Below, piece by piece: positions 18,521 to 54,602 of a stretch of DNA of 64,000 bases. The number at the start of each line of letters is the position of its first letter. Position 1 is the first letter of the stretch. Made by a program: the position numbers and the translations under genes. The stretch comes from Armatimonadota bacterium (lineage in GTDB: Bacteria; Armatimonadota; Fimbriimonadia; Fimbriimonadales; GBS-DC), in assembly GCA_013359125.1 (NCBI GenBank), contig JABWCR010000001.1:84475-148474 (forward strand), in the 5' to 3' direction. The notes under the pieces were generated by a model that worked only from the letters and a program-made list of their open reading frames with translations, did not search any database and was not told the DNA's origin.

Positions 18521-18769
18521 ATGCTTTGTCCGAAGTGTCACGACCAAGTCTTGGTCGTATTGGAGCGGTCTGGATTAGAGATCGAATATTGCGGCGGGTG
18601 CCGCGGCGTTTGGCTGGATAAGGGCGAACTGGAGAAGTTGATCGCGCTGGAAGGCAGCCAGCCAGTGCGTCAAGAGCGACCTCGACAGAACCGCGAAGAT
18701 TGGGACGACGACGACCGGCGCGAAAGGAAGCGCGGCGGGTTCTTGCGCGATCTGTTCGATTTCGACTAA
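18521..18769 (+). CDS. zinc-ribbon (zf-TFIIB-like) small protein
   Basis: ATG 18521 with SD ggagg 9 nt upstream. CPKC...CGGCRGVWLDKGELEKL, followed by an acidic/basic tail ending FLRDLFDFD. Confidence 0.6.
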   Translation: MLCPKCHDQVLVVLERSGLEIEYCGGCRGVWLDKGELEKLIALEGSQPVRQERPRQNREDWDDDDRRERKRGGFLRDLFDFD

Positions 18770-18774
18770 TCCCC

Positions 18775-19782: not shown

Positions 19783-20625
19783 ATGGTCAAGGTCGTCGTC
19801 GGAATCGATTTTGAAAACTATCAGAAAGCGATCGCGCTTTTGAAGGCTTTGCGATTTGAACAGGCTGAAGCGCACTTGCTGCACGTCGTGGAGTCGATTT
19901 TTCCGGACAAGAGCTTTCCGTCCTTGTCAGAGGGCCATCCGATGGCCGAGGTGTTTGCCGAAATGGAGGAGCGCGGTCAAGCCGAGTTGGCCAATGCTGC
20001 GGCTCTGATTGCAGGCTCCGGCTACGTCGCGACCACCGAGCGTCTAAAGGGCGATCCGGCTCGGCGCTTGATCGAGACCGCAACGCGTCGAAACGCCGAT
20101 TTGATCGCTGTCGGCGCGCAGCCCAAGACGGCCTGGGAATCGCTTTTCTATGGCAGCATCTCCAAAGCGCTTTCGTCATCGGCAGAGCAGTCGATCTTGG
20201 TTGCCAAGAGCGAACCCAAGTCTACGGAGGCTTTGACGGCGGTTTTGGCGACCGACCATTCGACCTACTGCGACCAATCCATTGAGAAGTTCATGAGTTG
20301 GAAGGCACATGGGGTCGGTCGATTGTTGATCCTGACCGCCATCGAAGCAAAAGCAGTCGCCGATGCCGGCGAATGGAAGGAGATGGCCGTTGACAAGAAC
20401 CAAGCCCTTTGCGATCGGTTCTCGGCTCTGGGGATCGAATGCCAAAGCAGGGTTACGGAGGGCAGGGCGCAGCAGGTTATCGCTTCGGCGATGAAGGAGA
20501 CGGCGTCCGATTTGCTGATTATGGGCGCGCGCGGACATGGTTTTTGGGATCGCGCTCGCTTGGGCAGCGTCTCTCATTTCGAACTTGTGGCCTCGCCGCA
20601 CAATGTGCTCGTGATGAGGGTTTAA
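19783..20625 (+). CDS. tandem universal stress protein (UspA) domain protein
   Basis: Two Usp halves, each ending in a G.(R/A).G..........GS(V/I)S motif (AVGAQPKTAWESLFYGSIS; MGARGHGFWDRARLGSVS). Confidence 0.8.
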   Translation: MVKVVVGIDFENYQKAIALLKALRFEQAEAHLLHVVESIFPDKSFPSLSEGHPMAEVFAEMEERGQAELANAAALIAGSGYVATTERLKGDPARRLIETATRRNADLIAVGAQPKTAWESLFYGSISKALSSSAEQSILVAKSEPKSTEALTAVLATDHSTYCDQSIEKFMSWKAHGVGRLLILTAIEAKAVADAGEWKEMAVDKNQALCDRFSALGIECQSRVTEGRAQQVIASAMKETASDLLIMGARGHGFWDRARLGSVSHFELVASPHNVLVMRV

Positions 20626-26161: not shown

Positions 26162-28354
26162 TTATTGCGGGCAGCAACCGAGGCCGAAGTTCATAAGGAC
26201 GGTGGCCAAGTCGACGTCGTCCACCCGGAAGTCGCGATTGGTGTCCTCGGTGAGACTTGGGCCAAAGTCTCCGAAGCGCATCAGCACGCGCGCCAGGTCG
26301 TAATCGTCGATGCAGCCGTCTTGGTCCACGTCGCCTTGCCAGTATCCTCTCGGATTGACCGCGCAAACCACTGCGCCGTCGCCTCGACCATAGACCATTT
26401 GGATTTCGTCCTTTGCGAACGACATGGCCGTTACGCCCTGGAATCCGCCCGTCTCCAAGTCGATGCGATTAGTGAGGGTTCGCAGGTTGAAATCCCAAAA
26501 GTTGAGAGAACCGAAGTAGGAAGAGCCGTCAAACTCGAACACGCCGGTGGCCAAGGTGCTGCCGTCATCGGAGAACTTGACGACGTTCACCCCGCCCGTA
26601 TGCGGCAGAGCCGCCTCCTGTTCGCCCGTCTGGATGTTCCAGACAGTGGCTTGGCAACCGATCGGGTATCGATCTGGGGACTCGTCGCCCTGGCCGATGA
26701 TCACTCGAAGACCGTCCGGCGAGAAATCGACCGAATTGGCCTGTGCTTCAGAGAGGAGAAAGCGCCGAGTAGGATCGAAGCTATCGAGCGTCCAGATTCG
26801 CGCGCCGCAATCGTAGAGGGTGCCTTCGGCGACGTAACCGCTGGCTGTGGCGATCATCGTACCGTTCCGAGAGAAGGCAACGGAGCGAATGGGCGATGTG
26901 TGGCCTTGATATTCGGTGTAAAGTTCGCCCGTATCGACGATCCAAAGACGCAACATGCAGTCGGTGAACCGATAGCCTTGAGTCGATTCGTACGAAGCGT
27001 CGCCGCCGGCGGATGCCAGCATGGTTCCGTCGGGCGAGAATGCCAAGCCCCGGACGGTCGCATAGTGGCCATAGAGAGTTTGAACGAGTTGTCCGTTCGA
27101 CGATCGCCAAATGTGGATATCGGCGATGCCATCGATGGGGTCGCCGCCGGTTGCGATCAGAGAGCCGTCGGGCGAGATCGCGATCGCTCGGATCCGCGAT
27201 TGAAATGGTCCGAGCACAGCTTGGGTCTGGCCGGTACAGACAGAGATGATCCTGAGCAAGTCGTCCCCGGCGGCGACGGCGGCGATGTCGCCGCTGGGCG
27301 ACACAGCGATCGCGCTGATGGGGTTGTGGTATTCGGCGTAGTCTCTAATCTGGACGCCTGTGTTTGCGTCCCATTCGAACACGGCGCGGTCGTCGCCCGA
27401 AGTGTAGAGCCGCAGACCATCGGGAGAGTAGAGCGCCTGGGTTGCACGCCCGCGATGAGCGATGACCGAAAACGCCGGAGCGTGGGGGATGGTCAGCCAG
27501 ACTCGAACGGTGCCGTCCGAACTGGTGGAGACCATGCGTCCGCCATCCGGCGCATAGGCAATACTGGTAATCTCGTCCGTATGGCCATGGAACGAACCGA
27601 TCTGCGTGCCGGTTAACGTGCTCCACTCACGAATGACGGGATCGGCCGAACTACCGCCGGAGCAAAGCCGAAGACCATCAAGCGAGTAAGCTAAAGATCG
27701 AACAGGACCTTCAAACGGTCCGATCTCTTGAACCATTGCGCCGGTCGTTGCGTTCCAAACGCGAATCGTGCCGTAGTTGTTGGGAAACGTTCCGTCTAGT
27801 CCGCCCGTAGCGATAGTCTGGCCGTTGGGACGAAATGCGAGCGCGGTCAGGTTTGCGCTGTGGACGAGAATCTGAGCAATGGGGGCTCCAGTCTCTACAT
27901 CCCACAACCTGACTCGTCGGTCGTCGTGGGCGGTGGCCAGCCGAGAGCCGTCGGGCGAGAATGCGACTGCCTTGACGCCGTTGACAGGCGCAGCGAGGGT
28001 GCGGACATAGTTCCCTACTCGCGGCTCCCATATGTGCGTCTGGCCCCATGCCTCGCCCGCCGCTAGCAGTGAGCCGTCGGGCGAGAATGCGAGCGTTCGA
28101 ACGCATCCAAGGTTGAATCGGGCCAGCGTGCGCTCGAGTCGACCGGTCAGGGTGGACCAGATTTTGATCGTTCGGTCGCAGAAACCGGCCGTGGCCAGCC
28201 ACAGACCGTCCGGCGACTGTGCTATCGCCTCGACTCCGTTGGCATGGCCGCCCGCCATCCACTTGATAGTGGGCGGGTTCTGCGCCAGAGAAGCCCCAAA
28301 TATCAAAACGGCAAAAAGCGCCGTCAGCAAAGCTCTCTTTCCTGCCATCGACAC
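26162..28354 (-). CDS. secreted WD40-repeat protein (at least 13 repeats) with dockerin-like C-terminal tail
   Basis: Signal peptide MSMAGKRALLTALFAVLIFGASLAQ. At least 13 units of (F/Y)SPDG..(L/I)A(T/S)...D..(I/V)..W. Tail: GDVDQDGCIDDYDLARVLMRFG...NRDFRVDDVDLATVLMNFGLGCCPQ. Confidence 0.88.
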   Translation of the reverse strand: MSMAGKRALLTALFAVLIFGASLAQNPPTIKWMAGGHANGVEAIAQSPDGLWLATAGFCDRTIKIWSTLTGRLERTLARFNLGCVRTLAFSPDGSLLAAGEAWGQTHIWEPRVGNYVRTLAAPVNGVKAVAFSPDGSRLATAHDDRRVRLWDVETGAPIAQILVHSANLTALAFRPNGQTIATGGLDGTFPNNYGTIRVWNATTGAMVQEIGPFEGPVRSLAYSLDGLRLCSGGSSADPVIREWSTLTGTQIGSFHGHTDEITSIAYAPDGGRMVSTSSDGTVRVWLTIPHAPAFSVIAHRGRATQALYSPDGLRLYTSGDDRAVFEWDANTGVQIRDYAEYHNPISAIAVSPSGDIAAVAAGDDLLRIISVCTGQTQAVLGPFQSRIRAIAISPDGSLIATGGDPIDGIADIHIWRSSNGQLVQTLYGHYATVRGLAFSPDGTMLASAGGDASYESTQGYRFTDCMLRLWIVDTGELYTEYQGHTSPIRSVAFSRNGTMIATASGYVAEGTLYDCGARIWTLDSFDPTRRFLLSEAQANSVDFSPDGLRVIIGQGDESPDRYPIGCQATVWNIQTGEQEAALPHTGGVNVVKFSDDGSTLATGVFEFDGSSYFGSLNFWDFNLRTLTNRIDLETGGFQGVTAMSFAKDEIQMVYGRGDGAVVCAVNPRGYWQGDVDQDGCIDDYDLARVLMRFGDFGPSLTEDTNRDFRVDDVDLATVLMNFGLGCCPQ

Positions 28355-35670: not shown

Positions 35671-35735
35671 GTTTGCCGGGCATCGATTCGTACTCAAAAT
35701 TGTGCTACATTTCGAAAAAATCCCGTTCGGCAAAC
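35671..35735. repeat. 65-bp module C element bounded by 8-bp terminal inverted repeats (MITE-like)
   Basis: GTTTGCCG ggcatcgattcgtactcaaaattgtgctacatttcgaaaaaatcccgtt CGGCAAAC. A degenerate module B copy lies nearby at 35907..35930. Confidence 0.7.
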
Positions 35736-36057
35736 GAGCCGGTCAAAGTCCCAGGACAAAAAAACGCCCTTAGGGCTTTTGGGCTAGGAACTCGGGGCGG
35801 AGCTTTGGCGGCCTCTTTCAACATCTCGGCGACCGCCTCCACATTGATACAGCCGGATGCGGAGGTATAGGAAAAACGGCGGGTGTGGCGGCTTTGCCGT
35901 CGCGCGCCTCGCGGGGACGCTCGGCCTCCCGGAGTTCGGCGGCATTGCGACGCTCGCCGTCATAGTACCGCCGGCGTCCCCGCCGGCCCCTTCGAGCGCC
36001 AAGGATGCCAATAGCCCAAAGCCCCCCCAACAATCCCAGGAAGATTAACAGCATTCG

Positions 36058-36066
36058 TGGTATAAC
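36058..36066 (+). promoter_or_regulatory. extended -10 TGgTATAAC placed 5 nt before ATG 36072 (leaderless geometry)
   Basis: Sequence is cgTGgTATAACcctctATGATG. Confidence 0.45.
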
Positions 36067-36071
36067 CCTCT

Positions 36072-36980
36072 ATGATGAACTCGCTGACCGAGCGCGAGCG
36101 AGGAAACGTCTTCTTGGCCGCCCTCCAGGCGCTTCGCCCCCATCAATGGATCAAGAACGGCCTGCTCTTTGCAGGCGTGCTCTTTGCCGGCAAGTTCCGC
36201 GATCCCGAGGCGCTGCTGCAGGCGTCGCTCGCTTTTCTCGCCTTTTGCGCGGTCTCGGGCGGCGTCTATGTGTTCAACGACATCCTCGATTGGAAGCGCG
36301 ACCGCGAGCATCCCGTCAAGCGCAATCGCCCAATCGCCTCGGGCCGTTTGCCTCTGCCCGGCGCCTGGGTCTTGCTATTGGTCGCATGGATCGGCGGCTT
36401 TCTTGGCCTGACCGCGCTCGATCCGTCGCTCCGACTTCTGGGCATTGGGGCGGCCTATGCGACCCTCACCGTCTCCTATTCGCTGGGGCTTAAGAACATT
36501 GCCGCTTTGGACGTTATCTTGATCGCGTTAGGGTTTGTGCTAAGGGCGGCGGCGGGCGCGGTCGCGGTCGATACGGCCATTTCGCCCTGGTTGATCGTCT
36601 GCACCTTCCTGCTCGCTCTCTTCTTGGGTTTTGGCAAGCGGCGGCACGAGCTGCTTCTGTTAGGCGAGGACGGCGCCAAGCATCGTCAATCGCTGGACGA
36701 GTACAACAAAGAGATGTTGGACCATCTGCTGACCATCACGGTGGCGGCAACTATCCAGTCGTATGCCATCTACACCATCCTATCGGATACGGCCAAGCAT
36801 CACGACGGCCTCTGGTATACTTTGCCGTTCGTGGTGTATGGGCTTTTCCGCTATTTGCAGCTCATCCACCGGCAGGACGAAGGGGGCAGTCCCGAGCGGA
36901 TCATCTTGGGGGATCGCAGGCTCGTTGTCTGTATCCTGCTGTGGACTCTGTCGGTCGTTGTGGTGATGTTCCGACAATAG
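36072..36980 (+). CDS. UbiA-family prenyltransferase, decaprenyl-phosphate phosphoribosyltransferase-like
   Basis: LRPHQWIKNGLLFAG.LFA and the Asp-rich motif YVFNDILDWKRDREHP. About 9 TM segments. Resembles the Rv3806c-type family. Confidence 0.8.
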   Translation: MMNSLTERERGNVFLAALQALRPHQWIKNGLLFAGVLFAGKFRDPEALLQASLAFLAFCAVSGGVYVFNDILDWKRDREHPVKRNRPIASGRLPLPGAWVLLLVAWIGGFLGLTALDPSLRLLGIGAAYATLTVSYSLGLKNIAALDVILIALGFVLRAAAGAVAVDTAISPWLIVCTFLLALFLGFGKRRHELLLLGEDGAKHRQSLDEYNKEMLDHLLTITVAATIQSYAIYTILSDTAKHHDGLWYTLPFVVYGLFRYLQLIHRQDEGGSPERIILGDRRLVVCILLWTLSVVVVMFRQ

Positions 36981-36987
36981 AAATCGA

Positions 36988-37557
36988 ATGGAAACGGAGC
37001 GATTGGCGGATCGAGCCCCCGGGCGAAGGCCGATGAATCTGTTGCGCAACCGGGCCGAGAGTCTCCCTCTTTCTGCGCGGCAGTTTGTCAAGTTCTGCAT
37101 CGTCGGCGGTATGAACACGGCGCTGGACTGGACGCTGACCTACCTGCTCTTTTATCATTCCGGCTTCCCCCAGCTGGTCGTTCAACAGGTCGCGCATCTG
37201 CTGGGCAGCGTCAACCCGTCCGATGCGGCCCTCTTTGTCAGCAAGTGCATCGCCACCTCTGTCGCTGTCTGTAATTCGTTCTTCTGGAACCGTCGTTGGA
37301 CTTTTCGCGTAACGGGAAGGGACGGCAGGCGCCGACAATTTATTAGGTTCGCCGCTGTCAACCTCACGGGTCTGGCGCTCAACTCGATTATCGCGACCAC
37401 CGTCGTAGCCGTGCTGCGAGGCGCCTTAGGCTTTGAAGGGGATCCGCCGAAACTGGTCTTTATGTATGGGCTGGCCACGGCGACCGGCATCGTGCTGTTT
37501 TGGAACTTTTTGGCGAACCGCTACTGGACTTTTCGTGTTAAAGATAACGGAGGATAG
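36988..37557 (+). CDS. GtrA family membrane protein
   Basis: FVKFCIVGGMNTALDW at the N-terminus, FFWNRRWTF and FLANRYWTF motifs. The alternative start ATG 37033 is equally possible. Confidence 0.8.
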   Translation: METERLADRAPGRRPMNLLRNRAESLPLSARQFVKFCIVGGMNTALDWTLTYLLFYHSGFPQLVVQQVAHLLGSVNPSDAALFVSKCIATSVAVCNSFFWNRRWTFRVTGRDGRRRQFIRFAAVNLTGLALNSIIATTVVAVLRGALGFEGDPPKLVFMYGLATATGIVLFWNFLANRYWTFRVKDNGG

Positions 37558-37560
37558 CCC

Positions 37561-38616
37561 TTGGTCGCTCCCTTTATAGACGAAGTTAAAAGACTGCCCA
37601 AGCCGCAAATATGGATGGTCGGCGCCATCGCGCTCGCCATCGGCATGCTCATCTACTCGTACTACGTCATCATCGATCTCTACTACATCCCACGATGGGG
37701 GCATGAGGACGGTTACTACTCTCACGCCTATCTGGTGCCAATCTTGGCTGTCGCCATTCTGTGGATGCGTAGAGACCGGCTGAAAGAACTCGGCGCCGAT
37801 ATGACGATTTACAGCCTTTTTGCGGGCATCGTTGCGTTTGTGATCGCCTTTGCGCTGATCCACGCAAGGGAATACCAGTCTCTCGGCTCGCCCAACTACA
37901 AGCCGGAATTCTACGAGACCTATGGCGTGCCTTTGTTGCTGGCGGTCTGTACGGCGATGCTGACGCTGCTCTACGTGGAGAAGCCCAAACCGAACTACTG
38001 GGGTCTGGGCATACTGGCGCTGGCTGTGGCGGCCCGAGCGGTCGGGCATTGGGGCAACTCCTTCTGGACGCCCAGCATGGCTTTGCCTCTCTTCATCATT
38101 GGAGCCATGATGCTGCTTTATGGGTGGCAGATCACCAAGGTGCTGATGTTTCCGATCCTGTTCCTCTACTTCATGGTTCCGTTGCCGTCTTGGATTTTTG
38201 ACGAGGTAACGCATCCGATCCAAGTCTGGTCGACAGACGCCTCGGTTACCATTCTCAAGTTCTTCTATTCGGTAACTCGCACGGGCGAGATCAAATTTCT
38301 AATGCCCAGCATGTACGAACTGGGCGTCGGGGTGGAGTGCAGCGGCTTTAAGATGACTATCTCGCTGCTCACCTTCATCTTCTTCTTTATGGTCTTTGTC
38401 GATCTGCCCGCATGGAAGAAGGCGATCATGGTAGCAGTCGTTTTGCCCATCGCGGTGCTGACCAATGCGCTTCGTATTTGTAGCGTGGCGGTCGCCGGGC
38501 ATCACTTTGGCGCCGATGTCGGCAATACCGTGCACGACTGGAGCGGCTATCCGTTGCTGTTCGTCGCGTTCATGTTCATTTTTGCTTTGGCAAGGTGGTT
38601 AGGATGGAAAAGATAG
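37561..38616 (+). CDS. exosortase family protein
   Basis: TTG start with SD ggagga 6 nt upstream. Polytopic membrane protein. Catalytic-type Cys in GVECSGFKM, Arg in TNALRI, His in AGHHFG. Confidence 0.85.
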   Translation: MVAPFIDEVKRLPKPQIWMVGAIALAIGMLIYSYYVIIDLYYIPRWGHEDGYYSHAYLVPILAVAILWMRRDRLKELGADMTIYSLFAGIVAFVIAFALIHAREYQSLGSPNYKPEFYETYGVPLLLAVCTAMLTLLYVEKPKPNYWGLGILALAVAARAVGHWGNSFWTPSMALPLFIIGAMMLLYGWQITKVLMFPILFLYFMVPLPSWIFDEVTHPIQVWSTDASVTILKFFYSVTRTGEIKFLMPSMYELGVGVECSGFKMTISLLTFIFFFMVFVDLPAWKKAIMVAVVLPIAVLTNALRICSVAVAGHHFGADVGNTVHDWSGYPLLFVAFMFIFALARWLGWKR

Positions 38617-39407
38617 AACGACCGGACGAGATCGAGGCCGAAGCCCCTGTAAACGGCGCTTTGGGCGAAGCAAAGGCCGAATGGGAGCAGGAGGGCGGCG
38701 CTCCTGAGGCTGAACCTATCGCAGAGCCAGTAACCTTGACAGGATCGACCGCGATGCAGAATCGCATGAAGCTGCCTATGGCGGTTCTCTTGGTTTTTGC
38801 CATCGGTATGGCGGTGGCAGTCAACGTGATCAAGCAGCCCGAGGGCGCCAAGGGCGAGCCGACCTTGCACAAACTCTCGCTCAACTTGGGCGACTGGGGC
38901 GGTCAGAAGTACGAGATGGACAAGGCTTCTTTGGACGAGTTGAAGCCGGACGAGTACGCGGCGATTCAGTATCGCGACAACGACGGCAACTCGGGCGATC
39001 TGACCATCATCGCCGGGTCGCACACGGGCGCCTTTCACAATCCCGAGGTCTGCTTTAGGGCGCAGCAGTGGGAGTTTACGGAGAACGCCGCCTCGTCTCT
39101 GGCCGTGCCGGGCATGGATCGCGAGATACCGATCAAGCGGGTCGGTCTCAATCACAGGATTACTGGACAGAAGGCGGTCGGCCTTTACTTCTACAAGACG
39201 CCTTATGGTCTTTTTGCCGATACGACGCCGGCCAGAATCTGGCTTTTCTTTGCGAGGGTATTAGGGGTTCAGCAAAAGTCCTACTTTGTCCGAGTGTTGG
39301 TGCTCTCCTCAGGCGGAAACAAGGAGAAGGACTTTGAAACGCTGGAGCAGTTTGCGATCGAGGTATTGGAATCAACCCGAGAAACCAATCCAGAACTGCT
39401 GAACTAA
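38595..39407 (+). CDS. EpsI family (exosortase-associated) protein
   Basis: Single TM (LPMAVLLVFAIGMAVAV) followed by a periplasmic domain with ...LGDW.G......L..L..D.Y....Y......V.L.I........HNPE.C.... The start is uncertain: GTG 38595, ATG 38604 or ATG 38754. Confidence 0.75.
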   Translation: MVRMEKIERPDEIEAEAPVNGALGEAKAEWEQEGGAPEAEPIAEPVTLTGSTAMQNRMKLPMAVLLVFAIGMAVAVNVIKQPEGAKGEPTLHKLSLNLGDWGGQKYEMDKASLDELKPDEYAAIQYRDNDGNSGDLTIIAGSHTGAFHNPEVCFRAQQWEFTENAASSLAVPGMDREIPIKRVGLNHRITGQKAVGLYFYKTPYGLFADTTPARIWLFFARVLGVQQKSYFVRVLVLSSGGNKEKDFETLEQFAIEVLESTRETNPELLN

Positions 39408-39421
39408 GCCGAGGCGCGTCG

Positions 39422-40207
39422 ATCCAGCCGATTCCAGGCAAGGCGCTGGGCCTTTTCGGCCCTTCTGGGTCTGGCAAGACGGCCCTGCTTGCCCAAATGT
39501 ACGCCAAGCACAAAGATGCCGGGGCGAGTCCGTCGTTGCTCTCACGGCAACCCAGAGCGTCCACCGTTCGCGCCTATCTTAAGCCCAAGGCCGATCCGCC
39601 TGCCAGGGCAATCTATTTGCTCGAACTGTTCGGGCTCTACAGCAAGGCCGACCGATCGATCGGCGAACTGAGCGAGGGCGAACTAGCTGCCCTGAAAGCC
39701 GCGTTTGCCTTGGCGCCCCGCTCCAAGCTCTATCTGCTCGATTGCTCGTTTGAACCGCTGGATTTTGAGCGTCGAAAGCGGCTCTGGTCGGAGATCGACG
39801 ACTTGGCGCGCAAGGGCGCCGCGATCGTGGTTTCGTCTCGCGATCCATCGATAGCGGGACGCTGCGACGAGGTCGCGATCATTGCCGGCGGACGCTCCAT
39901 CGCACAAAACGATCCGCGTCGGCTGTGCGAAGATGTCTCACCGACCGAGATCTTGATAGAAGCAGAGGATCCCGACGGCCTTGGCGACCTGCTGCCCAAT
40001 TCCGAGATCGAGCTCGTCTGGGACGAGTCGGGCTATCGCGCGCGCGTTCGCCAGGGCGATGCGGAGGCCATGAGTCTGCTCAGGGACGGTTACGGAAACG
40101 TCCGAACCGTTGTCGTTCGCCAGCCGAACCTCGCCGAGGCGTGGCAAACCCTTGCGATTAAGGCAGGGGTCTATGGCGAGGAGCGGCGTCCTCGCCCGAA
40201 AAAGTAA
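39422..40207 (+). CDS. degenerate ABC-2-type ATPase-like protein (no canonical start codon; catalytic Glu and switch His replaced)
   Basis: Walker A GPSGSGKT (39458..39481) lies upstream of the first ATG (39497). The frame is open from 39338 and holds no ATG, GTG or TTG before 39497. Signature LSEGE. Walker B LYLLDC (Cys in place of Glu). SSRD in place of the H-loop. DUF4162-like C-terminal domain. The 5' boundary is unresolved. Confidence 0.6.
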   Translation: MQPIPGKALGLFGPSGSGKTALLAQMYAKHKDAGASPSLLSRQPRASTVRAYLKPKADPPARAIYLLELFGLYSKADRSIGELSEGELAALKAAFALAPRSKLYLLDCSFEPLDFERRKRLWSEIDDLARKGAAIVVSSRDPSIAGRCDEVAIIAGGRSIAQNDPRRLCEDVSPTEILIEAEDPDGLGDLLPNSEIELVWDESGYRARVRQGDAEAMSLLRDGYGNVRTVVVRQPNLAEAWQTLAIKAGVYGEERRPRPKK

Positions 40208-40212
40208 GCGGG

Positions 40213-40485
40213 CTACTCGCCAGCGTCTAGATCGCCGCGAGTGAGGCGCCGAGCAAGCGTCTCCTGCGATATGGCCGAAAGGATGACGTGGCCGCTGTCT
40301 GCAAAGATCACGCACTTTGTTCGCCGCCCTTGCGTGGCGTCGATCAAGTTGCTGCCTTCCTTGCGAAACTGACGAATCAGCCGGCGCATAGGAGCCGATT
40401 CGCTACTGATCATAGCTACGATTTTTGATGTCTGAACGTAATTATAGAACCCGACGTTCAGGACGGGCGGCGGTTGACTTTGCAT
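40213..40485 (-). CDS. remA: RemA-like (DUF370) extracellular matrix regulator
   Basis: LNVGFYNYVQTSKIVAMISSESAPMRRLI...LIDATQGRRTKCVIFADSGHVILSAISQETLARRL is colinear with B. subtilis RemA as recalled. Confidence 0.85.
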   Translation of the reverse strand: MQSQPPPVLNVGFYNYVQTSKIVAMISSESAPMRRLIRQFRKEGSNLIDATQGRRTKCVIFADSGHVILSAISQETLARRLTRGDLDAGE

Positions 40486-41157: not shown

Positions 41158-41195
41158 CTCAAAATTGTGCTACATTTGCAAAAAATCCCGTTCGG
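41158..41195. repeat. module C repeat copy (ctcaaaattgtgctacatttgcaaaaaatcccgttcgg)
   Basis: Near-identical to the copies at 35688..35727 and 17048..17085, and to the inverted copies at 17205..17236 and 54541..54568. Confidence 0.8.
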
Positions 41196-41333
41196 GCGGC
41201 GCGGCGCGTTTGCGGATTGGTTTCCACCATTGGTCGTCGGCAATCCGGCTGGGATCGTCGTATTAGTTTCCTTCGCGCCCGGCGCTTTAAGCCTCCATAC
41301 CGAAGGGCGGGTGCGGAAGGTTAAGGGCGCTTC

Positions 41334-41486
41334 GGCTCGCGGGGACGCTCGCCCTCCCGGGCGGCACCGTTGTCTTCTGCCAGGCGGGAGCCTGGCGTTC
41401 CACGGGGTCAGGGCATGCTGCGCCGTTGGAAGGCCGCCCTCCCGGGCGGCACCGTTGTCTTCTGCCAGGCGGGAGCCTGGCGTTCC
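41334..41486 (+). repeat. module B copy followed by a tandem 51-bp unit (period 85 bp), each unit ending in hairpin module A
   Basis: ggctcgcggggacgctcgccctccc at 41334..41358. gccctcccgggcggcaccgttgtcttctgccaggcgggagcctggcgttcc occurs at 41351..41401 and is identical at 41436..41486. Confidence 0.9.
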
Positions 41487-41574
41487 GGGGCGTCTCGCGC
41501 AAAGGGCGGGAAGATCGCCAAGAAGCGTTGCGTTCCGTTCGGCGCAGAATTCGTATTCTGAATTCGGGAATCTG

Positions 41575-41583
41575 TGTTATACT
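41575..41583 (+). promoter_or_regulatory. extended -10 TGtTATACT
   Basis: Sequence is tcTGtTATACTatc, about 42 nt upstream of ATG 41625, which has a strong SD (aaaggaggga). Confidence 0.45.
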
Positions 41584-41624
41584 ATCTGTCAGAAGCATAC
41601 CGACCCAAAGGAGGGAAGCGCATC

Positions 41625-42656
41625 ATGAAGCAGATTTTGATTCTCGCAGCGGCCGCTATGGTGGTTGCTGCCGGCGCGCAGCCGTCCAACGACGGCGTAG
41701 CCATCACGTCCAAGTATCCCGGCGCCCTGATTGCGGCGCAGTCCAACTACACCGGTTTTGGCGATAACTTTTCCGAACTCAACACGCTCTGGGGCTTCCG
41801 CACTCTCAGCACGCTCTACCTGGGCGTTGCGGGCAATTTGGAGGGCAACTTCAACAATCTCCATATCTATATCGACTCGATCCCCGGCGGCGGAAACCCG
41901 TTCTTTCTGAACCAGGGCTGTCTGAACTGTAGCGTGGTGGGCATGAGCGGCGTGGTGTGGGACAGCGGCTTTACGCCCGACTACGTGCTCTCGATCAGCC
42001 ACGGCGGCGGCGTCTACTATGTGGACCTGATCGACATTACGACCGATACCTCTTGCTATCAGGGCGAAGGGTATACCGATAGTTTCAGCGGTCTGTTGTT
42101 CGGCGGCTCCGACTGCGCGACCAGCGGTCTGTTGGTGGCCTTTAACAACACCAACAGTATGGGTATTACCAGCGATTCGAACAATTTGGGCGATCCGTTC
42201 ACGTGCAGCACAGGTTTCGACATCCAGATCCCCATCAGCGCGATTGCGGCGACCGGTCCGATCAAGGCGGCCGCGCTCATTACGGGCGGCGCCAATTTGG
42301 GCGATCTGTGCGGCAGCAACAGTCTGCCCCTTGGCACCTATGTGTCGAACCAGATGCTGCCAGCCATGAACTCGGGCAATCCGGGCTCGCATTACAACAA
42401 TCTGGCGTGGTCGCACTGTCCCGACGCTTTGGGCGGCGCGAACGGCATCGAGTTCACTCAGGCTACGGGCGATCAGTGCGCCGACGTGGTTTGGCTGGGC
42501 GATGTGAACGGCGACTGGTGCGTGGACGATGCGGATCTGGCGATTGTTTTGGAGAACTTTGGCACGGACGATGAACAAGCAGACGTGAACGGCGACGGGA
42601 TTGTGGACGATACCGATCTGGCGATCGTTCTCTCTTCGTTCGGCGTCGGTTGCTAA
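41625..42656 (+). CDS. secreted protein with unknown Cys/Gly/Asn-rich domain and dockerin-like C-terminal tail
   Basis: Start moved to ATG 41625 (SD aaaggaggga). Signal peptide MKQILILAAAAMVVAAGAQP. Tail: GDVNGDWCVDDADLAIVLENFG...DVNGDGIVDDTDLAIVLSSFGVGC. Confidence 0.85.
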   Translation: MKQILILAAAAMVVAAGAQPSNDGVAITSKYPGALIAAQSNYTGFGDNFSELNTLWGFRTLSTLYLGVAGNLEGNFNNLHIYIDSIPGGGNPFFLNQGCLNCSVVGMSGVVWDSGFTPDYVLSISHGGGVYYVDLIDITTDTSCYQGEGYTDSFSGLLFGGSDCATSGLLVAFNNTNSMGITSDSNNLGDPFTCSTGFDIQIPISAIAATGPIKAAALITGGANLGDLCGSNSLPLGTYVSNQMLPAMNSGNPGSHYNNLAWSHCPDALGGANGIEFTQATGDQCADVVWLGDVNGDWCVDDADLAIVLENFGTDDEQADVNGDGIVDDTDLAIVLSSFGVGC

Positions 42657-42713: not shown

Positions 42714-44294
42714 TTAATCTCCGCAGGTTTCGCCGTACATCCACAGCACGAGGGCGAGATCGGCATCGTCCACAAAGCCGTCCTTGACCGCGTCGCCGTT
42801 GCTGCCCGGCGGCACGATCGCTCCGAAGTTCTCTAAGACGGTCTCTAAGTCCGTTCCGTCTACCCTGCCGTCGTTGTTCGCGTCGCCCCATCGCTGGCAG
42901 AGTTTGATGGTGATGGCGTCTGCGCCTGAAGTCCAATCCCAGACGGTCGTGCCGACGATGTAGACCCCGCCCCAGTCGTCTAAGAACAGATCTTCCAACG
43001 TGTCGACGTTGTCGGCCGGAGCATGCCAGCGATACTGCCATGTCAGCTGGTCCCCGGCGTTGAACTTGGCGACATAAACATCCTGGTTAAGCGACGAGCT
43101 GCGCTGGCTCCCGCCGTAGCCCACGTAGAGCGAGCCAAAGGCATCGACGCGCCCTCTTTGCGCGTTGCCCTCAAAATCGGGCATCGGGCGGTAGAAGAGA
43201 GGCTCGAGGGGCGCGCCGTCCAGCCGATAGCGCAACACATAGCAATCGTATAGATCGATGTCTGTCCAATGATCGGCGCCGCTAAAAGAGTAGACGATGC
43301 CGTTTGCGATCGTCAGCCCGATCGCCGAACCAAAGAATTGGGACTGGGGATAGAGTTCGTAGACGCGAACCCAGGCTAGTTCGCCATTTGGACGAATGCG
43401 CCCGGTCGCGGCCGCGAAGGAGACCTGGCCCCGGTCGTTGGCCCATGTGATGGTGCCGCCGGTGAAGATGAGGTCGCCGTCGATTGCGACGATTCCTAGC
43501 GCGTGATAATGTCGGCTGTACTCCGTCTGGGACGCCAATCGATTGAAGCCGACCAATGCGCCGTCTTCCGCGCGATAGGCCGCTACCCACATGTCGGACC
43601 AATAGCGCGTCCAATCGTTGGGGCGCGGCGCGTCGACGGCCACTGTACCCGTGGCATAGATCAGGTCGTTCTGCGGACTATAGGCGACGCGGCTGGCTCT
43701 GCTTCTCGTCCGATCGTGCGGCGGAGGCGGGCGGCGCATCCATTGCAGTTGGCCGTCTGAGTTCAACTTGTAGACCACGTAGTGGATGGCGGCGTCCCAC
43801 GCCTCGGACATTCCGGCAACATAGGCGTTGCCGCTGTCATCGACCGCCAAGTCGTACGACTCGTCCAAATTGAAGCCGGGCGTCTCGAAACGATGCCTCC
43901 AGAGAAGGCGGCCGTCCCGATCCATCTTCACCGTGTCGATCGCTTGTCGCTCTGGCTGAGGATGAGCGGCGCCCGTAACAAAGACATTGCCCGACGAGTC
44001 GACGGCGAGGGCGCTTGGGCCGCCCAACGCTTCCCCCGAATTGCGAGCGATCGATCGAAGCCAGACCCGCCGACCGTCTGGCGCGTATTTGATAATGGTC
44101 CACCGCAGGCGATTCTCAGAGTCCGGGTCGCCGCCCATGACGATCAGATGGCCCGACGGGTCCCATTTCGATTCTTTGACCGTATTATTCCGCACGCCCT
44201 GGTACACGTCCATCCACTGGACCCAGGGTTGGGCGACAGCCAAGGTTGCGGTACAGATAAAGGCGCTCAGAACGAATTTCGCTCTCATGTTCAT
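42714..44294 (-). CDS. secreted SBBP beta-propeller protein with dockerin-like tail (cassette gene b)
   Basis: Start moved to MNMRAKFVLSAFICTATLAVAQP. Propeller repeats. Tail: CQRWGDANNDGRVDGTDLETVLENFG...GDAVKDGFVDDADLALVLWMYGETCGD. Confidence 0.85.
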   Translation of the reverse strand: MNMRAKFVLSAFICTATLAVAQPWVQWMDVYQGVRNNTVKESKWDPSGHLIVMGGDPDSENRLRWTIIKYAPDGRRVWLRSIARNSGEALGGPSALAVDSSGNVFVTGAAHPQPERQAIDTVKMDRDGRLLWRHRFETPGFNLDESYDLAVDDSGNAYVAGMSEAWDAAIHYVVYKLNSDGQLQWMRRPPPPHDRTRSRASRVAYSPQNDLIYATGTVAVDAPRPNDWTRYWSDMWVAAYRAEDGALVGFNRLASQTEYSRHYHALGIVAIDGDLIFTGGTITWANDRGQVSFAAATGRIRPNGELAWVRVYELYPQSQFFGSAIGLTIANGIVYSFSGADHWTDIDLYDCYVLRYRLDGAPLEPLFYRPMPDFEGNAQRGRVDAFGSLYVGYGGSQRSSSLNQDVYVAKFNAGDQLTWQYRWHAPADNVDTLEDLFLDDWGGVYIVGTTVWDWTSGADAITIKLCQRWGDANNDGRVDGTDLETVLENFGAIVPPGSNGDAVKDGFVDDADLALVLWMYGETCGD

Positions 44295-44349
44295 TGTAAT
44301 AACTCCCGCACTTGCGGGTCGGGCTTTTAAGCCCGACCCGTGTCTGCCA

Positions 44350-46056
44350 TTAAGGACATTGGTGCCCAAACGCTGCCAAAACGATCGCTAAGTCGGTATC
44401 GTCGACCGTTCCATCGTTGTTCAAGTCGGTCTCGGGGCATCCGCCTTGCTGGCCGAAGCAGCCCAAGACATAGGCCAGATCCGCGTCGTCCACAATGCCG
44501 TCGTGGTTGATGTCGGCCCGTGGCCAGCACCAACGCATCGCCAGAAAGTGGTTTTGCGAGCCAATCTGCAATCTTCCCGCCGTCCAGACGTAGGAAGGGT
44601 CGGAAGAGTCGTAGACCATGGCAAATGGCCTTTCAGCATCGCCAGGCGCGTCTCGTTCGAAGTTCCTTTCGAATCGGACGTCGAGGCAGGGACTGAACTT
44701 AGCCAGTTTGAAGTCCGAGTCAGAGCCGCTCGGCCTTTTGGCGGGCGCGACCACAAAGACATTGCCGTGCACGTCCAAGATCGCTCGCGCGACCGTCTCA
44801 TTGACCACGTTTATCGAAAGCAGGTCCACATCTGCGTTGTCGGCAATGGGCGAGACGGTGCGGTCGTCGCACGCCGAATAGGTCGCGGTATACTTTGCCG
44901 CCACCATTCGCTGGGTCTCTCCGGTGGAGCCGACCATGCCGATGCCGGCGGCATAAACGACCGAATGTTGGGCGTCAAGCAGGATAGCCGTCGGATAGGC
45001 CGCGGTGGTCTCACTTGGGTGGAAAATCGACTTCCAGCACCGATTGCCCTCGGGGTCGTACTTGATCACCCCAAAGTCGCCGGGAAGCGATTGTGTTTCG
45101 CTCGCGGCGCCGGCCACATAGGCGTTGCCCGCTTGATCCATGACGATGGCGTTCGCCACGTCGTCGGACGAGGTCACATGGCTCCAAACAGCCTGGTAGG
45201 CTACGGCACCGTCGAGTTTGTCTATTCTAACGGTCAAGAAGTCCTTGTGATTCGGGGAACCGCCGCCTGATTGAAGGACATAGCCTGCGGCGCCGACGTG
45301 ATCGGCGCCATCCAGGGCGATCGCGTGGAGCTGGTCTTCGCCATTGGCGCTGCCGGAGAAGAAGCGAATGCCTTCGAGATGGTTTCCACCAGGCTCCCAC
45401 TGGTCAGAGGGCTCTCCGTCAGAGTTATTCAATCTGGCAACAGCGGCGTCGAGATTCCCGTCCTTGACGAGCTTTCCAGCAACGAACACTCGCCTGTCTG
45501 GGTCTAGAATGATGGCTCTCGCCTGTTCCTGTCCGTTGCCGTTGTGAATCAGGGTTGTCCACGCCGCGGTGTAGCTTTCTTGCGTGGCGTGCTTGGCATA
45601 CTTTCTGACGGCAAAGTCCCAATCGCCGGAACCCGTCTGCACCGTTCCGCAGACGTAGACGTTCTGGGAACTGTCGACCGCGACTCCAAAGCCCTCGTCG
45701 TCGCCGTCGAACGAGCCGTTCCACTGGTCGGACCAGAGCAAGACGCCGCTTCGGTCGTACTTGACGACATGGATGTCCAGCCCGTTTGGGCCGGAAACGA
45801 CTCCCGCAAGATAGGCGTTTCCGAGCGGGTCTTTTGCCATTGACCGCACGAAAGCTGTGGATGCGCCCGACGTATTCCGCTTGTCGATCTTCTCCAGACT
45901 GAAATTCAAAGGCAGGCAGTTCTCTTGGCCCGGCGCGGTGGGCGGTTGGGAAAGGAAGGCGATCAATAACAGCAAGGTCAAGGTCAGTCTCCCGTTACGG
46001 TAGAGAGAGAGAGGGGGAGAGAGAGCCGAATCGATGGCGCTGCATAGTCTGAACAT
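44350..46056 (-). CDS. secreted SBBP beta-propeller protein with dockerin-like tail (cassette gene a)
   Basis: Hydrophobic leader LTLTLLLLIAFLS. Propeller repeats (NAYLAGV, NVYVCGT, RVFVAGK, NAYVAGA, VVYAAGI, NVFVVAP). Tail: WCWPRADINHDGIVDDADLAYVLGCFG...DLNNDGTVDDTDLAIVLAAFGHQCP. Confidence 0.85.
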   Translation of the reverse strand: MFRLCSAIDSALSPPLSLYRNGRLTLTLLLLIAFLSQPPTAPGQENCLPLNFSLEKIDKRNTSGASTAFVRSMAKDPLGNAYLAGVVSGPNGLDIHVVKYDRSGVLLWSDQWNGSFDGDDEGFGVAVDSSQNVYVCGTVQTGSGDWDFAVRKYAKHATQESYTAAWTTLIHNGNGQEQARAIILDPDRRVFVAGKLVKDGNLDAAVARLNNSDGEPSDQWEPGGNHLEGIRFFSGSANGEDQLHAIALDGADHVGAAGYVLQSGGGSPNHKDFLTVRIDKLDGAVAYQAVWSHVTSSDDVANAIVMDQAGNAYVAGAASETQSLPGDFGVIKYDPEGNRCWKSIFHPSETTAAYPTAILLDAQHSVVYAAGIGMVGSTGETQRMVAAKYTATYSACDDRTVSPIADNADVDLLSINVVNETVARAILDVHGNVFVVAPAKRPSGSDSDFKLAKFSPCLDVRFERNFERDAPGDAERPFAMVYDSSDPSYVWTAGRLQIGSQNHFLAMRWCWPRADINHDGIVDDADLAYVLGCFGQQGGCPETDLNNDGTVDDTDLAIVLAAFGHQCP

Positions 46057-51861: not shown

Positions 51862-51958
51862 GTTTGGGGATACTATGGCATAGGGGGAGAATCGGATTGG
51901 CAGGCTCCAACGCCGTTTTTGGGCGAGCGGGAACCCCCCGCCGGTTGGCGGCGTCGGG

Positions 51959-52011
51959 GCCAGGCGAGAGCCTGGCGTTCCGTTCCTCAGCCTGGAGATG
52001 GGGCGTTTCGG
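51959..52011 (+). repeat. repeat modules A plus D (gccaggcgagagcctggcgttcc gtt cctcagcctggagatggggcgtttcgg)
   Basis: Hairpin with loop GAGA at 51959..51981. Module D at 51985..52011 matches 54616..54642 at 26 of 27 positions in the same orientation. Confidence 0.8.
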
Positions 52012-52082
52012 GGTCGAGGATTTGCTGGACGAGGGCCTCGATCGCGCCGCGGTCGGCGTCCGAGGCGCGGGATTTCTTGGGC

Positions 52083-52091
52083 TGGTACAAT
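52083..52091 (+). promoter_or_regulatory. extended -10 TGgTACAAT placed 6 nt before ATG 52098 (leaderless geometry)
   Basis: Sequence is gcTGgTACAATcaacgtATG. Confidence 0.45.
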
Positions 52092-52097
52092 CAACGT

Positions 52098-53120
52098 ATG
52101 CCTCGCTCAAATGCCGTTTCCGTCGCCAAACATACTGGCGAGTTGACCCCAACGTCCCATAAGGTCATCATAGCCGACTCCCGATGGATGACCGAGGTGC
52201 CGGACGAGTCGGTCCATCTCGTCGTCACGTCTCCGCCCTATTGGCAACTCAAGGATTACGGCCATGAAGACCAGATCGGGTTCGACGACACCTACGAGGA
52301 CTATGTCAATAATCTAAACCTTGTCTGGGACGAGTGTCGGCGCGTCCTTCATCCGGGGTGTCGGCTTTGCGTGAACATCGGCGACCAGTTTGCCCGATCC
52401 GTGTATTACGGCCGGTACAAGGTCATACCCATTCGAACAGAGATCATCAAGTTCTGCGAGTCAATAGGGTTCGATTTCATGGGCTCGATCGTTTGGCGCA
52501 AAGTGACCACCACAAATACGACTGGGGGCGCGGTCATCATGGGTTCTTATCCCTATCCGCGCAATGGGATTCTGAAAATTGACTATGAGCATATCCTGCT
52601 GTTCAAAAAACTCGGCGAAGCTCCCAAGCCGACATTAGACCAAAAGCACGCATCAAAGCTCGCCGATGAAGAGTGGAACATCTACTTCTCAGGGCATTGG
52701 AACTTCCCAGGCGAACGCCAGGACAGGCACCTCGCAATGTTTCCCGAAGAACTTCCTCGCCGTTTGATCAAGATGTTCACGTTTATCGGAGAGACAGTTC
52801 TCGATCCATTCTTGGGTAGCGGGACGACCTCGCGCGCGGCCTACAATTTAGGGCGAAACTCGATTGGGTACGAAGTCAACCCAGAGTTCCTTCCGGTCAT
52901 TCGTAGCAAGATATGTGGAAGAGACAACAACCTCTTCGAGGCCGCCTCCGAAATTGAGGTTTGCGAGCGTCGGGCTCATCCGGACAACCGGAAGGAGCGG
53001 CTCGCCGCGTTCCCGTACGTCTTTCAGGATTTTGTCAGGGTCGAAAAGCAGGTAGATCCTAGGACCCTCGACTTTGGGTCGAAAATCAGCGCCGATAGCA
53101 GGGGCGCCCGCGTCCGGTGA
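52098..53120 (+). CDS. beta-class N4/N6 DNA methyltransferase (SPPY motif; N4-cytosine or N6-adenine)
   Basis: Start moved to ATG 52098. Motif IV VVTSPPYW precedes motif I LDPFLGSGTT, the beta-class order. Local GC is about 50%. Confidence 0.9.
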   Translation: MPRSNAVSVAKHTGELTPTSHKVIIADSRWMTEVPDESVHLVVTSPPYWQLKDYGHEDQIGFDDTYEDYVNNLNLVWDECRRVLHPGCRLCVNIGDQFARSVYYGRYKVIPIRTEIIKFCESIGFDFMGSIVWRKVTTTNTTGGAVIMGSYPYPRNGILKIDYEHILLFKKLGEAPKPTLDQKHASKLADEEWNIYFSGHWNFPGERQDRHLAMFPEELPRRLIKMFTFIGETVLDPFLGSGTTSRAAYNLGRNSIGYEVNPEFLPVIRSKICGRDNNLFEAASEIEVCERRAHPDNRKERLAAFPYVFQDFVRVEKQVDPRTLDFGSKISADSRGARVR

Positions 53121-53704
53121 AGAAGCTCACGATCAGCAACCAGGAGATCGCGCGCCTGGTTGCCGGAGTGCCTGCTGACTTTCCAAAATACACAACGCAG
53201 TTGATCAATTTGGCGAATCAGAACGCTGGCGGCACGCGCCCAAAGGTGGTCGGCCAACTCTCCGACATGATCCAAGAATTCACCGGCAAGAGCCTTGCAG
53301 AGTGGCGAGACTTTTACCTTGAAAAGAAGCCTGTCGCGATGAAAGCGGCTGCCGACAAAATCTGGGCGATGATCCAGAATCTGAAGGTGGCGATAGAAAG
53401 GATCGACCGGAAGATGGTAGATGATTGGGTGTATGACCTAGTGATCGTCAAAACGTTTGTGGGGCTTCGTTTCCAGGAATCGATTTTGGCAAAGATCGCC
53501 AGCGAGGAGAATACGACCTATCGATTGGCGATGCCCGAAGAAGAGGCGCAGGGAATAGACGGATTCATCGGCGAGACGCCCGTTTCAATCAAGCCAGCGA
53601 CGTATCGAACCAAAAACATGTTGCCCGAAGCGATCGATGTCCAGATGATTTTCTATGACAAGCAGAAGGATGGGCTTCGGATCGAATGGGAACCGTGGCA
53701 ATGA
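53117..53704 (+). CDS. putative type II restriction endonuclease (possibly MjaI-like)
   Basis: 4-nt overlap with the methyltransferase stop. 195 aa with low GC. FPKYTTQLINLANQNAGGTRPKVVGQ resembles what I recall of MjaI-family enzymes. Possible core GIDGF...VSIKP. Unverified. Confidence 0.5.
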   Translation: MKKLTISNQEIARLVAGVPADFPKYTTQLINLANQNAGGTRPKVVGQLSDMIQEFTGKSLAEWRDFYLEKKPVAMKAAADKIWAMIQNLKVAIERIDRKMVDDWVYDLVIVKTFVGLRFQESILAKIASEENTTYRLAMPEEEAQGIDGFIGETPVSIKPATYRTKNMLPEAIDVQMIFYDKQKDGLRIEWEPWQ

Positions 53705-54540: not shown

Positions 54541-54602
54541 TAATGTAGCACAATTTTGAGTACGAATCAGCCCCTGTGCGGGCAATAGACGGCCTGTGCA
54601 GG
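54541..54602. repeat. inverted module C plus paired palindromic decamers (same block as 17006..17065, opposite orientation)
   Basis: The sequence taatgtagcacaattttgagtacgaatcagcccctgtgcgggcaatagacggcctgtgcagg is the reverse complement of the consensus cctgYacaggccgYctattgccYgcRcagggKctgattcgtRctcaaaRttgtgctaca. Confidence 0.8.

Follow-up and report, generated by a model that had tools for sequence, protein, structure and literature searches.

Results

The cassette and its four core genes

The stretch of DNA analyzed here, referred to below as the window, is a 64-kb segment of contig JABWCR010000001.1 from an Armatimonadota bacterium, and the system in question is a gene cassette at positions 36058 to 40485 in which a UbiA-family enzyme and a GtrA-family membrane protein are encoded together with an exosortase (Xrt) and its partner protein EpsI. 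An earlier reading made from the sequence alone (the original prediction) had proposed an operon of five plus-strand genes ending at a convergent remA-like gene. Five plus-strand open reading frames (ORFs) do lie between the minus-strand tig-clpP-clpX genes and the remA-like gene; their coordinates proved correct, and the protein families of all five and of the remA-like neighbor hold up in Pfam and NCBIfam profile searches. The observation of a UbiA-GtrA-Xrt-EpsI cassette, with an enzyme of the decaprenyl-phosphate phosphoribose (DPPR) synthase type and GtrA joined to an exosortase/EpsI pair in one operon, is confirmed, and the interpretation first placed upon it is partly supported.

The first gene (36072..36980, plus strand) encodes a 302-residue protein of the UbiA family (PF01040). 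The Asp motif FNDILDWKRD is present as predicted, and the residues N69, D70, D73, and D77 of the NDxxDxxxD pattern are invariant in eight orthologs. The protein scores 264.7 bits against NF008977, 'decaprenyl-phosphate phosphoribosyltransferase' (cut-off 234), and 229.3 bits against NF008978 (cut-off 207), both of which are equivalog-level models, whereas it scores far under the cut-offs of other UbiA subfamilies and gives weak matches to aromatic prenyltransferases. Orthologs from both types of locus described below likewise exceed the NF008977 cut-off. Residues 9-295 align full length to the structure of Mycobacterium tuberculosis Rv3806c (PDB 8j8j, E=2.4e-39). Equivalog-level homology points to a polyprenyl-phosphate 5-phosphoribosyltransferase of the DPPR or polyprenyl-phosphate phosphoribose (PPPR) synthase type, a specificity that we infer from the cut-offs of hidden Markov models (HMMs) only. 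Pfam detects no additional domain in the 302 residues, and no fused HAD phosphatase domain is present.

Next lies the gene for a small membrane protein of the GtrA family (36988..37557, plus strand; PF04138, 79.8 bits), so the GtrA-like assignment holds. Read from the ATG at 36988, the protein has 189 residues; the gene callers choose an ATG at 37033, which yields 174 residues and leaves a 52-nt gap after UbiA. Orthologs of 156-174 residues occupy the same position in 36 loci.

The exosortase gene (37561..38616, plus strand) begins with a TTG codon 3 nt past the GtrA stop and encodes a protein of 351 residues that belongs to no named subtype. It exceeds the cut-offs of the general family models TIGR02602 (111.6 versus 105.55 bits) and PF09721 (153.2 versus 25.7) and of the TIGR04178 signature (58.1 versus 23). 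Classification against the NCBIfam subfamilies had been proposed as a check, and the models tested were those for XrtA, B, C, D, H, N, S, T, V, and W and for CrtA, B, and C. None of these cut-offs is reached: the scores are 107 against a cut-off of 425 for XrtW, 106 against 400 for XrtD, 103 against 313 for XrtV, and 93 against 208 for XrtA. Five other Armatimonadota exosortases and that of locus L001 likewise fall below all subtype cut-offs; all 12 Armatimonadota exosortases scanned, seven sequences spread over the tree and five nearly identical copies of the L059 type, lie outside every current NCBIfam subtype. The same cut-offs rule out membership of a named subtype for the other Armatimonadota exosortases in that set.

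An alignment of 16 exosortase sequences identifies three invariant residues, C260 in VECSGFK, R305 in NALRI, and H325 in TVHDWSG. The Cys and Arg are those named in the original prediction. The predicted His was misplaced: the AGHHFG stretch to which it had been assigned varies among homologs, whereas H325 is conserved. The alignment also reveals an in-frame insertion of approximately 63 residues (37792..37980, plus strand) that is absent from all 15 aligned homologs and is specific to this lineage. Every phmmer match of the exosortase to the representative library splits in two around this insertion, and no other homolog in the databases searched has a counterpart of it. Hydropathy analysis indicates that it adds two hydrophobic segments, at residues 82-100 and 121-139, which would preserve the topology of the protein.

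The fourth gene (38604..39407, plus strand) encodes a DUF3485 protein (PF11984) with one N-terminal membrane anchor that passes the TIGR02914 cut-off for EpsI (54.6 versus 42.8 bits), as the prediction of an EpsI-like protein after the exosortase had anticipated. The gene callers place its start at an ATG at 38604, 12 nt ahead of where the exosortase stop codon ends, which creates a 13-nt overlap; this overlap is kept in 34 of the 36 related loci. An alternative GTG start is found at 38595.

Conservation of the gene order in related genomes

An exosortase-alignment scan with one genome per GTDB species yielded 78 loci, nearly all of them from named Armatimonadota, with one from Abditibacteriota and a few without a phylum name, and neighboring genes were mapped by tblastn. 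UbiA and GtrA lie directly upstream of the exosortase in 36 of the 78 loci and are absent in 38; the other four are at contig edges. The order UbiA-GtrA-Xrt-EpsI thus recurs in 36 species-level loci, at approximately 40-50% protein identity, and is far beyond chance. Conservation of gene order had been named as a check on the original prediction, and these counts speak against a chance juxtaposition. In the exosortase tree, the loci with the UbiA-GtrA pair group into what is essentially a single clade, with a small second branch (L044, L056) besides, and the UbiA/GtrA-Xrt adjacency spans two classes of Armatimonadota, which is roughly class-level divergence. Throughout, the pair holds a fixed position, with a priming transferase before it and Xrt after it, and the genes overlap or lie 3-14 nt apart.

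Upstream of the cassette, genes for Wza-like (PolyExport) and Wzc-like proteins and a priming transferase (BacTransf) are present in all 29 loci with enough upstream DNA. The layout in Fimbriimonadales is PolyExport-Wzc-like-priming transferase-epimerase-UbiA-GtrA-Xrt-EpsI-ABC-Nudix. The Chthonomonadia-like layout is S8 peptidase-PolyExport-Wzc-like-priming transferase-UbiA-GtrA-Xrt-EpsI, followed by a convergent tricorn protease. The export, chain-length, and priming proteins of these relatives score below the cut-offs of exosortase-associated NCBIfam models, and general exopolysaccharide (EPS) models match them more strongly. The system thus occupies an EPS locus of the usual kind to which a UbiA/GtrA pair has been added. 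Judged by the relatives, it does not stand apart from EPS loci; only the source genome has the cassette detached. Indeed, the window is the sole one of 30 testable loci in which the four-gene core stands apart from the export module. Here tig-clpP-clpX and remA flank the cassette, there are no Wza, Wzc, or priming-transferase genes, and the core stands alone with a damaged ABC-type ATPase gene. The four core genes stay together although the export genes are absent from the 64 kb.

A reciprocal scan of metagenome contigs that started from UbiA found an adjoining exosortase in 2 of 80 loci, both of Armatimonadota types, so the link is specific to this clade and is ruled out as a general property of the UbiA family. 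The remaining UbiA relatives, at 40-53% identity, lie beside mevalonate-kinase-like, GT2, and SMR-like genes. Given such different neighbors, the substrate specificity assigned to UbiA rests on the HMM cut-offs only.

These data bear on the idea that the adjacency is without specific meaning, UbiA and GtrA being ordinary polysaccharide side-chain genes in an EPS locus, or that UbiA makes a different prenylated product. Exosortase genes are almost always found among EPS genes, as was described for epsH (Haft et al. 2006, PMC1569441), homologs of UbiA with 40-53% identity are found in many unrelated surroundings, and the wider UbiA family includes aromatic prenyltransferases. Set against this are the fixed position and tight junctions kept over roughly class-level divergence, the survival of the arrangement in the source genome without the rest of the locus, and, for the product, scores above two phosphoribosyltransferase equivalog cut-offs and far below those of other UbiA subfamilies. 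We therefore regard this explanation, in either form, as very unlikely.

PEP-CTERM substrates and a GT-C-fold neighbor

A scan for C-terminal tails composed of a transmembrane (TM) segment and a basic cluster covered every ORF of the window and approximately 1.4 Mb of related loci. It confirmed that no protein in the window carries a PEP-CTERM tail, as originally noted, and gave only one real match, in locus L039, so the substrates are not usually encoded near the locus. Just downstream of EpsI in L039, and on the opposite strand, a gene for a 544-residue multi-pass protein adjoins, on the same strand, a gene for a signal-peptide protein that ends in QPVPEPATG...LLALWRRKRGQV. The latter matches PF07589 (25.9 versus 20.7 bits), is named a PEP-CTERM protein by NCBI, and has nine homologs that keep the same tail; a related metagenome-assembled genome (MAG) encodes two further PEP-CTERM proteins. 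Canonical VPEP...RRR proteins are thus present in related Armatimonadota (L039, P0050-P0058, L094), and the substrates look ordinary.

The 544-residue membrane protein follows EpsI in six loci (L039, L041, L045, L047, L048, and L096). Searches of Pfam, NCBIfam, and PDB sequences returned no match for it, and classification at the sequence level gave no result; some members of its family carry PF13231. Fold comparison alone resolved its identity. An AlphaFold model (pLDDT 88.4, pTM 0.89) was compared using Foldseek, and the top matches are all GT-C enzymes: STT3 (E=1e-6), ArnT (TM-score 0.54), DPY19, PglB, AglB, AftA, and ALG9. Judged by this predicted structure, the EpsI-adjacent protein is a GT-C-fold glycosyltransferase. 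Enzymes of the GT-C type work outside the cytoplasmic membrane and take their sugars from polyprenyl-phosphate-linked forms, and a donor of this type is what UbiA and GtrA would supply.

More distant homologs of the GT-C protein, on MAG or metagenome contigs, have other surroundings. One (L097, 7617-10581) lies beside genes for an ADP-ribosylglycohydrolase, BacA, and an epimerase. The other (L098, 6671-15122) lies beside genes for a Dpy19-like protein and a Wzy_C protein, with another UbiA gene 3.5 kb away.

The window also encodes five beta-propeller proteins (SBBP or WD40 repeats) with a double dockerin-type C-terminal repeat, at 394-2865(+), 26162-28354(-), 41574-42656(+), 42714-44369(-), and 44350-46056(-); three of the five flank the cassette region. 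They end in ...DLAxVLxxFGxxC, with the Cys within a few residues of the C-terminus and no TM segment after it. As candidate sorting signals these FGxxC tails were ruled out: they have neither a TM segment nor a basic cluster and are Dockerin_1 modules.

The ABC-type ATPase gene and the detached state of the cassette

The fifth gene, predicted to encode a degenerate ABC-2-type ATPase, is indeed damaged; more precisely, alignment with 10 orthologs identifies it as a 5'-damaged ortholog of a conserved EpsI-adjacent ABC-type ATPase. The aligned region spans 39338..40207 (plus strand), and the ORF from its first ATG spans 39497..40207. The frame is open from 39338, and the Walker A motif GPSGSGKT is encoded at 39458-39481, a position upstream of that ATG; for the protein translated from the ATG, the ABC match starts at approximately position 97 of the profile. 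No ATG, GTG, or TTG occurs in frame before 39497, which is 89 nt after the EpsI stop. The predicted spacing of 3-7 nt or overlap between consecutive genes therefore fails between EpsI and the ABC gene. Relative to its orthologs, the window gene has lost approximately nine residues after Walker A and reads LLDCS in place of LLDDP at Walker B; the H-loop His is replaced by Arg in the whole ortholog group. In the annotation read for type-F loci, no permease gene stands next to the ABC gene. The NCBI record and five Logan assemblies built from separate sequencing runs agree exactly at the junction, which rules out that the missing start stems from an assembly error. The window ABC gene is probably decaying, or else it is translated from a non-canonical start.

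In the Fimbriimonadales relatives (L001, L010-L036; for example, L001 9730-11163), EpsI is followed by the ABC-type ATPase gene and then by a gene for a NudE-like Nudix hydrolase. The ATPases of these relatives have Asp in place of the catalytic Glu and are without the H-loop His.

A dispersed intergenic repeat (CTCAAAATTGTGCTACATTTCGAAAAAATCCCGTTCGG...) is found upstream of the cassette at 35693..35756 (plus strand), and a direct copy lies downstream at 41158..41221 (plus strand). These two copies bracket a 5.4-kb segment that extends from UbiA to a DUF899 gene, and they may relate to the separation of the cassette from its EPS locus. Further copies are present at 17048-17111, 17128-17191, 17190-17245 (inverted), and 54542-54580 (inverted). 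The family core, TTGTGCTACATTTCGAAAAAATCCC, has four matches versus zero expected by chance, and companion repeats occur at 35905, 41333-41494, and 54479.

Taken together, these features raise the question of whether the source-genome cassette is a decaying remnant, cut from its Wza/Wzc/priming-transferase partners by rearrangement and no longer working. That it is the only one of 30 testable loci without an upstream export module would fit such a fate, as would an ABC gene that has lost its start codon and the Walker B acidic residue, an exosortase with a unique 63-residue insertion, the lack of any PEP-CTERM gene in 64 kb, and the repeats that bracket the segment. The four core genes themselves tell against it. 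Their ORFs are intact, with a third-position GC bias (GC3) of 0.71-0.78 that is the same as in housekeeping genes, and they keep C260, R305, H325, the UbiA Asp motifs, and the 13-nt Xrt/EpsI overlap. The reading frame is kept through the insertion, whose two hydrophobic segments would leave the topology unchanged; the assemblies from five further sequencing runs (Logan) carry the identical sequence; and the export genes may lie elsewhere on the same contig. We thus consider it unlikely that the cassette is a nonfunctional remnant.

Other features of the window

An extended -10 box had been predicted just before the UbiA start codon. The sequence TGgTATAAC, read directly from the DNA at 36058..36066 (plus strand), is present and ends 5 nt before the ATG, but it was not reported by a sigma-70 promoter scan. 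Since UbiA is an internal operon gene in the relatives, conservation offers no check on this element. If the candidate -10 box is used, the UbiA mRNA would be leaderless. Nothing in the window or in the 468-bp upstream spacer came up to threshold in an Rfam scan.

The RemA-like gene (40213..40485, minus strand; PF04025, 96.6 bits) is convergent with the ABC gene, and the two stop codons are 5 nt apart, as predicted. RemA neighbors the cassette in the source genome only, and it was ruled out as a component of the system because no RemA match occurs in any of 87 related loci.

Divergent from UbiA, an uncalled candidate ORF of 78 residues (35818-36054, minus strand) would encode a protein that starts with a hydrophobic helix and continues into an Arg-rich stretch (MLLIFLGLLGGLWAIGILGARRGRRGRRR...). 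At 51864-53704 lies a type II restriction-modification pair, in which an N6/N4 DNA methylase gene (PF01555) overlaps that of a restriction endonuclease of the MjaI family (PF09568). The sign of the GC skew switches close to 18 kb (approximately 16000-20000; cumulative minimum approximately -0.51), and the skew is unusually high, 0.20-0.24, at 48-52 kb.

Discussion

Our preferred reading, which we hold to be somewhat more probable than all else, is that the cassette belongs to an Armatimonadota variant of the exosortase/PEP-CTERM EPS system whose operon took in the donor-making part, two of three components, of a periplasmic pentofuranose glycosylation pathway. Given its equivalog-level homology, UbiA would transfer 5-phosphoribose from phosphoribosyl pyrophosphate (PRPP) to polyprenyl phosphate at the cytoplasmic face of the membrane. 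A phosphatase would then strip the 5-phosphate from the lipid-linked phosphoribose, and in Fimbriimonadales relatives the GalE-like epimerase encoded just upstream may alter the pentose. By family precedent, GtrA could flip the lipid-linked pentose or scaffold the complex. Outside the cytoplasmic membrane, a GT-C transferase would attach the pentofuranose to the exported polysaccharide, to PEP-CTERM proteins, or to both; its gene stands beside EpsI in some relatives and in the source genome would have to be unlinked. The exosortase, through Cys260, Arg305, and His325, and EpsI would cleave the PEP-CTERM anchor and release the proteins or attach them to the matrix, a family-level hypothesis. 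In the source genome, the four-gene core appears to have been separated from the Wza/Wzc/priming-transferase module, with the neighboring ABC gene decaying. The analysis establishes the gene identities at HMM level, the conservation of the cassette, its restriction to one clade, the GT-C fold, and the presence of canonical PEP-CTERM tails in relatives; which pentose is made, what GtrA does, what the GT-C enzyme modifies, and whether sorting depends directly on the sugar are all points that we infer.

Several observations weigh against this reading. The 64-kb window encodes no phosphatase, no DprE1/E2, and no Wza, Wzc, or priming transferase; none of its ORFs has a PEP-CTERM-like tail; and tblastn finds in it no homolog of the 544-residue GT-C protein, nor is any GT-C family represented among the window proteins scanned. 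Among the relatives, the GT-C neighbor is present in only 6 of approximately 40 loci and is paired with a PEP-CTERM gene once. The GalE-like epimerase could equally serve the priming transferase, and in other metagenomic lineages the genes beside UbiA relatives (40-53% identity) are quite different. The flippase role of GtrA is disputed even in mycobacteria (bioRxiv 10.1101/2020.04.19.049825). Given that exosortases have no proven acceptor, the cleavage and attachment step is likewise hypothetical. The link between UbiA/GtrA and the exosortase may be no more than shared membership of one surface-glycan pathway.

A closer link can also be envisaged, in which the exosortase uses the lipid-linked pentose, or some glycolipid derived from it, as the acceptor for cleaved PEP-CTERM proteins, and UbiA and GtrA are core to sorting rather than to polysaccharide decoration. 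This would parallel sortase with lipid II, or T9SS, the type IX secretion system, with the linking sugar of anionic lipopolysaccharide (A-LPS). UbiA-GtrA is always directly beside Xrt-EpsI rather than beside the export genes, and it stayed with Xrt-EpsI when the locus broke up in the source genome. Moreover, no exosortase acceptor is known (PMC1569441), and GtrA-like proteins can act as interaction hubs (bioRxiv 10.1101/2020.04.19.049825). On the other hand, 38 other Armatimonadota exosortase-EpsI loci and all named Xrt subtypes work without adjacent UbiA/GtrA, polyprenyl-phosphate pentose has no nucleophiles other than hydroxyls, the six relatives with a GT-C enzyme next to EpsI suggest that the donor is used in the ordinary way, and the detached arrangement is one example only. 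On these grounds, a pentose lipid as acceptor seems quite unlikely. We judge equally improbable the broader claim that the exosortase reaction in this Armatimonadota clade itself depends on lipid-linked pentose, whether through GT-C pentofuranosylation of PEP-CTERM proteins before or during sorting or through transfer of the cleaved protein onto a glycolipid or glycan derived from polyprenyl-phosphate pentose. If that dependence were true, the pentose would be the first identified chemical partner of any exosortase.

On our preferred reading, a donor pathway taken into an EPS locus, the cassette has value beyond this genome. Exosortases were reportedly predicted in 2006; to our knowledge, their attachment target is still not known, and the same applies to the function of EpsI. 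This clade provides a natural experiment in which a well-defined donor pathway amenable to biochemistry, from PRPP to polyprenyl-phosphate pentose, is genetically tied to Xrt-EpsI, and the tie holds where the rest of the polysaccharide locus has been removed. The locus is thus a concrete handle on the link between surface-protein sorting and surface-sugar decoration. It predicts pentose adducts on PEP-CTERM proteins or on the matrix polysaccharide, a GT-C partner, and sorting or matrix defects on loss of UbiA or GtrA. A UbiA/GtrA insertion is conserved beside an exosortase of no named subtype, and no description of the combination was found in the literature searched, in agreement with the original statement that no exosortase subtype so defined had been described. 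In that literature no paper combines 'exosortase' with 'GtrA', and 'exosortase' and 'UbiA' occur together in one haloarchaeal genome report only, each term once.

Comparison with known systems

The closest exosortase system is that of XrtA/EpsH and EpsI, in which EpsI is without known function and a Cys/Arg/His triad suggests transpeptidation (PMC1569441). Shared with it are a multi-pass exosortase that conserves the Cys, Arg, and His residues, with EpsI next in order; in the relatives, surrounding genes for Wza-like export, a Wzc-like chain-length protein/tyrosine kinase, and a priming phosphoglycosyltransferase; and, in related genomes, canonical VPEP-TM-RRR substrates. The Armatimonadota type differs in its exosortases, which score 93-156 bits against the XrtA cut-off of 208 and fall under all other subtype cut-offs too, and in the UbiA/GtrA pair between priming transferase and exosortase. 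No PrsK, PrsR, or PrsT genes were seen in the Armatimonadota loci, and in the collections searched this type is confined to Armatimonadota.

The original prediction had drawn its analogy with mycobacterial arabinan. Like the decaprenyl-phospho-arabinose pathway (Rv3806c, Rv3807c, DprE1/E2, Rv3789), the cassette has a UbiA protein that aligns end to end with Rv3806c and a GtrA-family partner, Rv3789 in mycobacteria. Unlike that pathway, the conserved loci have no annotated DprE1/DprE2 or PAP2 phosphatase and no Emb/Aft-type polymerase context. Given the lack of DprE1/DprE2 and PAP2 annotation, the pentose is more likely ribose or an epimer derived from it by a short-chain dehydrogenase/reductase (SDR) than arabinose.

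In the pilin arabinosylation of Pseudomonas aeruginosa, the GT-C enzyme TfpW glycosylates pilin with polyprenyl-phosphate pentofuranose, helped by a GtrA-like protein whose role as a flippase is likewise under dispute (bioRxiv 10.1101/2020.04.19.049825). Locus L039 resembles this arrangement in that a GT-C gene lies beside the gene for a secreted protein, here a PEP-CTERM protein. It differs in that PEP-CTERM proteins are only a putative substrate class and the pairing is seen in one locus only.

A better analog than mycobacterial arabinan, and one in which arabinose is not implied, is the three-component pathway for periplasmic pentofuranose side chains. There, experiments have shown that the side chains are added by a polyprenyl-phosphoribose synthase of the UbiA family with homology to Rv3806c, together with a flippase and a GT-C enzyme (Kelly et al. 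2024, PMC11127046). Optionally, a GalE-like SDR epimerase turns ribose to xylose, or DprE1/E2 turn ribose to arabinose (PMC11127046). The Armatimonadota loci depart from this scheme in that the candidate flippase is of the GtrA type and not MATE, the GT-C gene is usually unlinked, and the host locus is an exosortase/EPS locus and not an O-antigen locus. In addition, UbiA has no fused HAD phosphatase, and no phosphatase family is annotated in the conserved loci; a phosphatase may be encoded elsewhere. They share with it the Rv3806c-homologous UbiA synthase, a small membrane protein in the flippase position, in some relatives a GT-C-fold transferase, and in Fimbriimonadales a GalE-like SDR directly upstream of UbiA that parallels ORF13 of that study (PMC11127046). 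By analogy, then, the epimerase-UbiA-GtrA order of Fimbriimonadales and the GT-C neighbor of other relatives fit the three-component scheme well, and the cassette would extend such systems to a new phylum and to an EPS and protein-sorting context.

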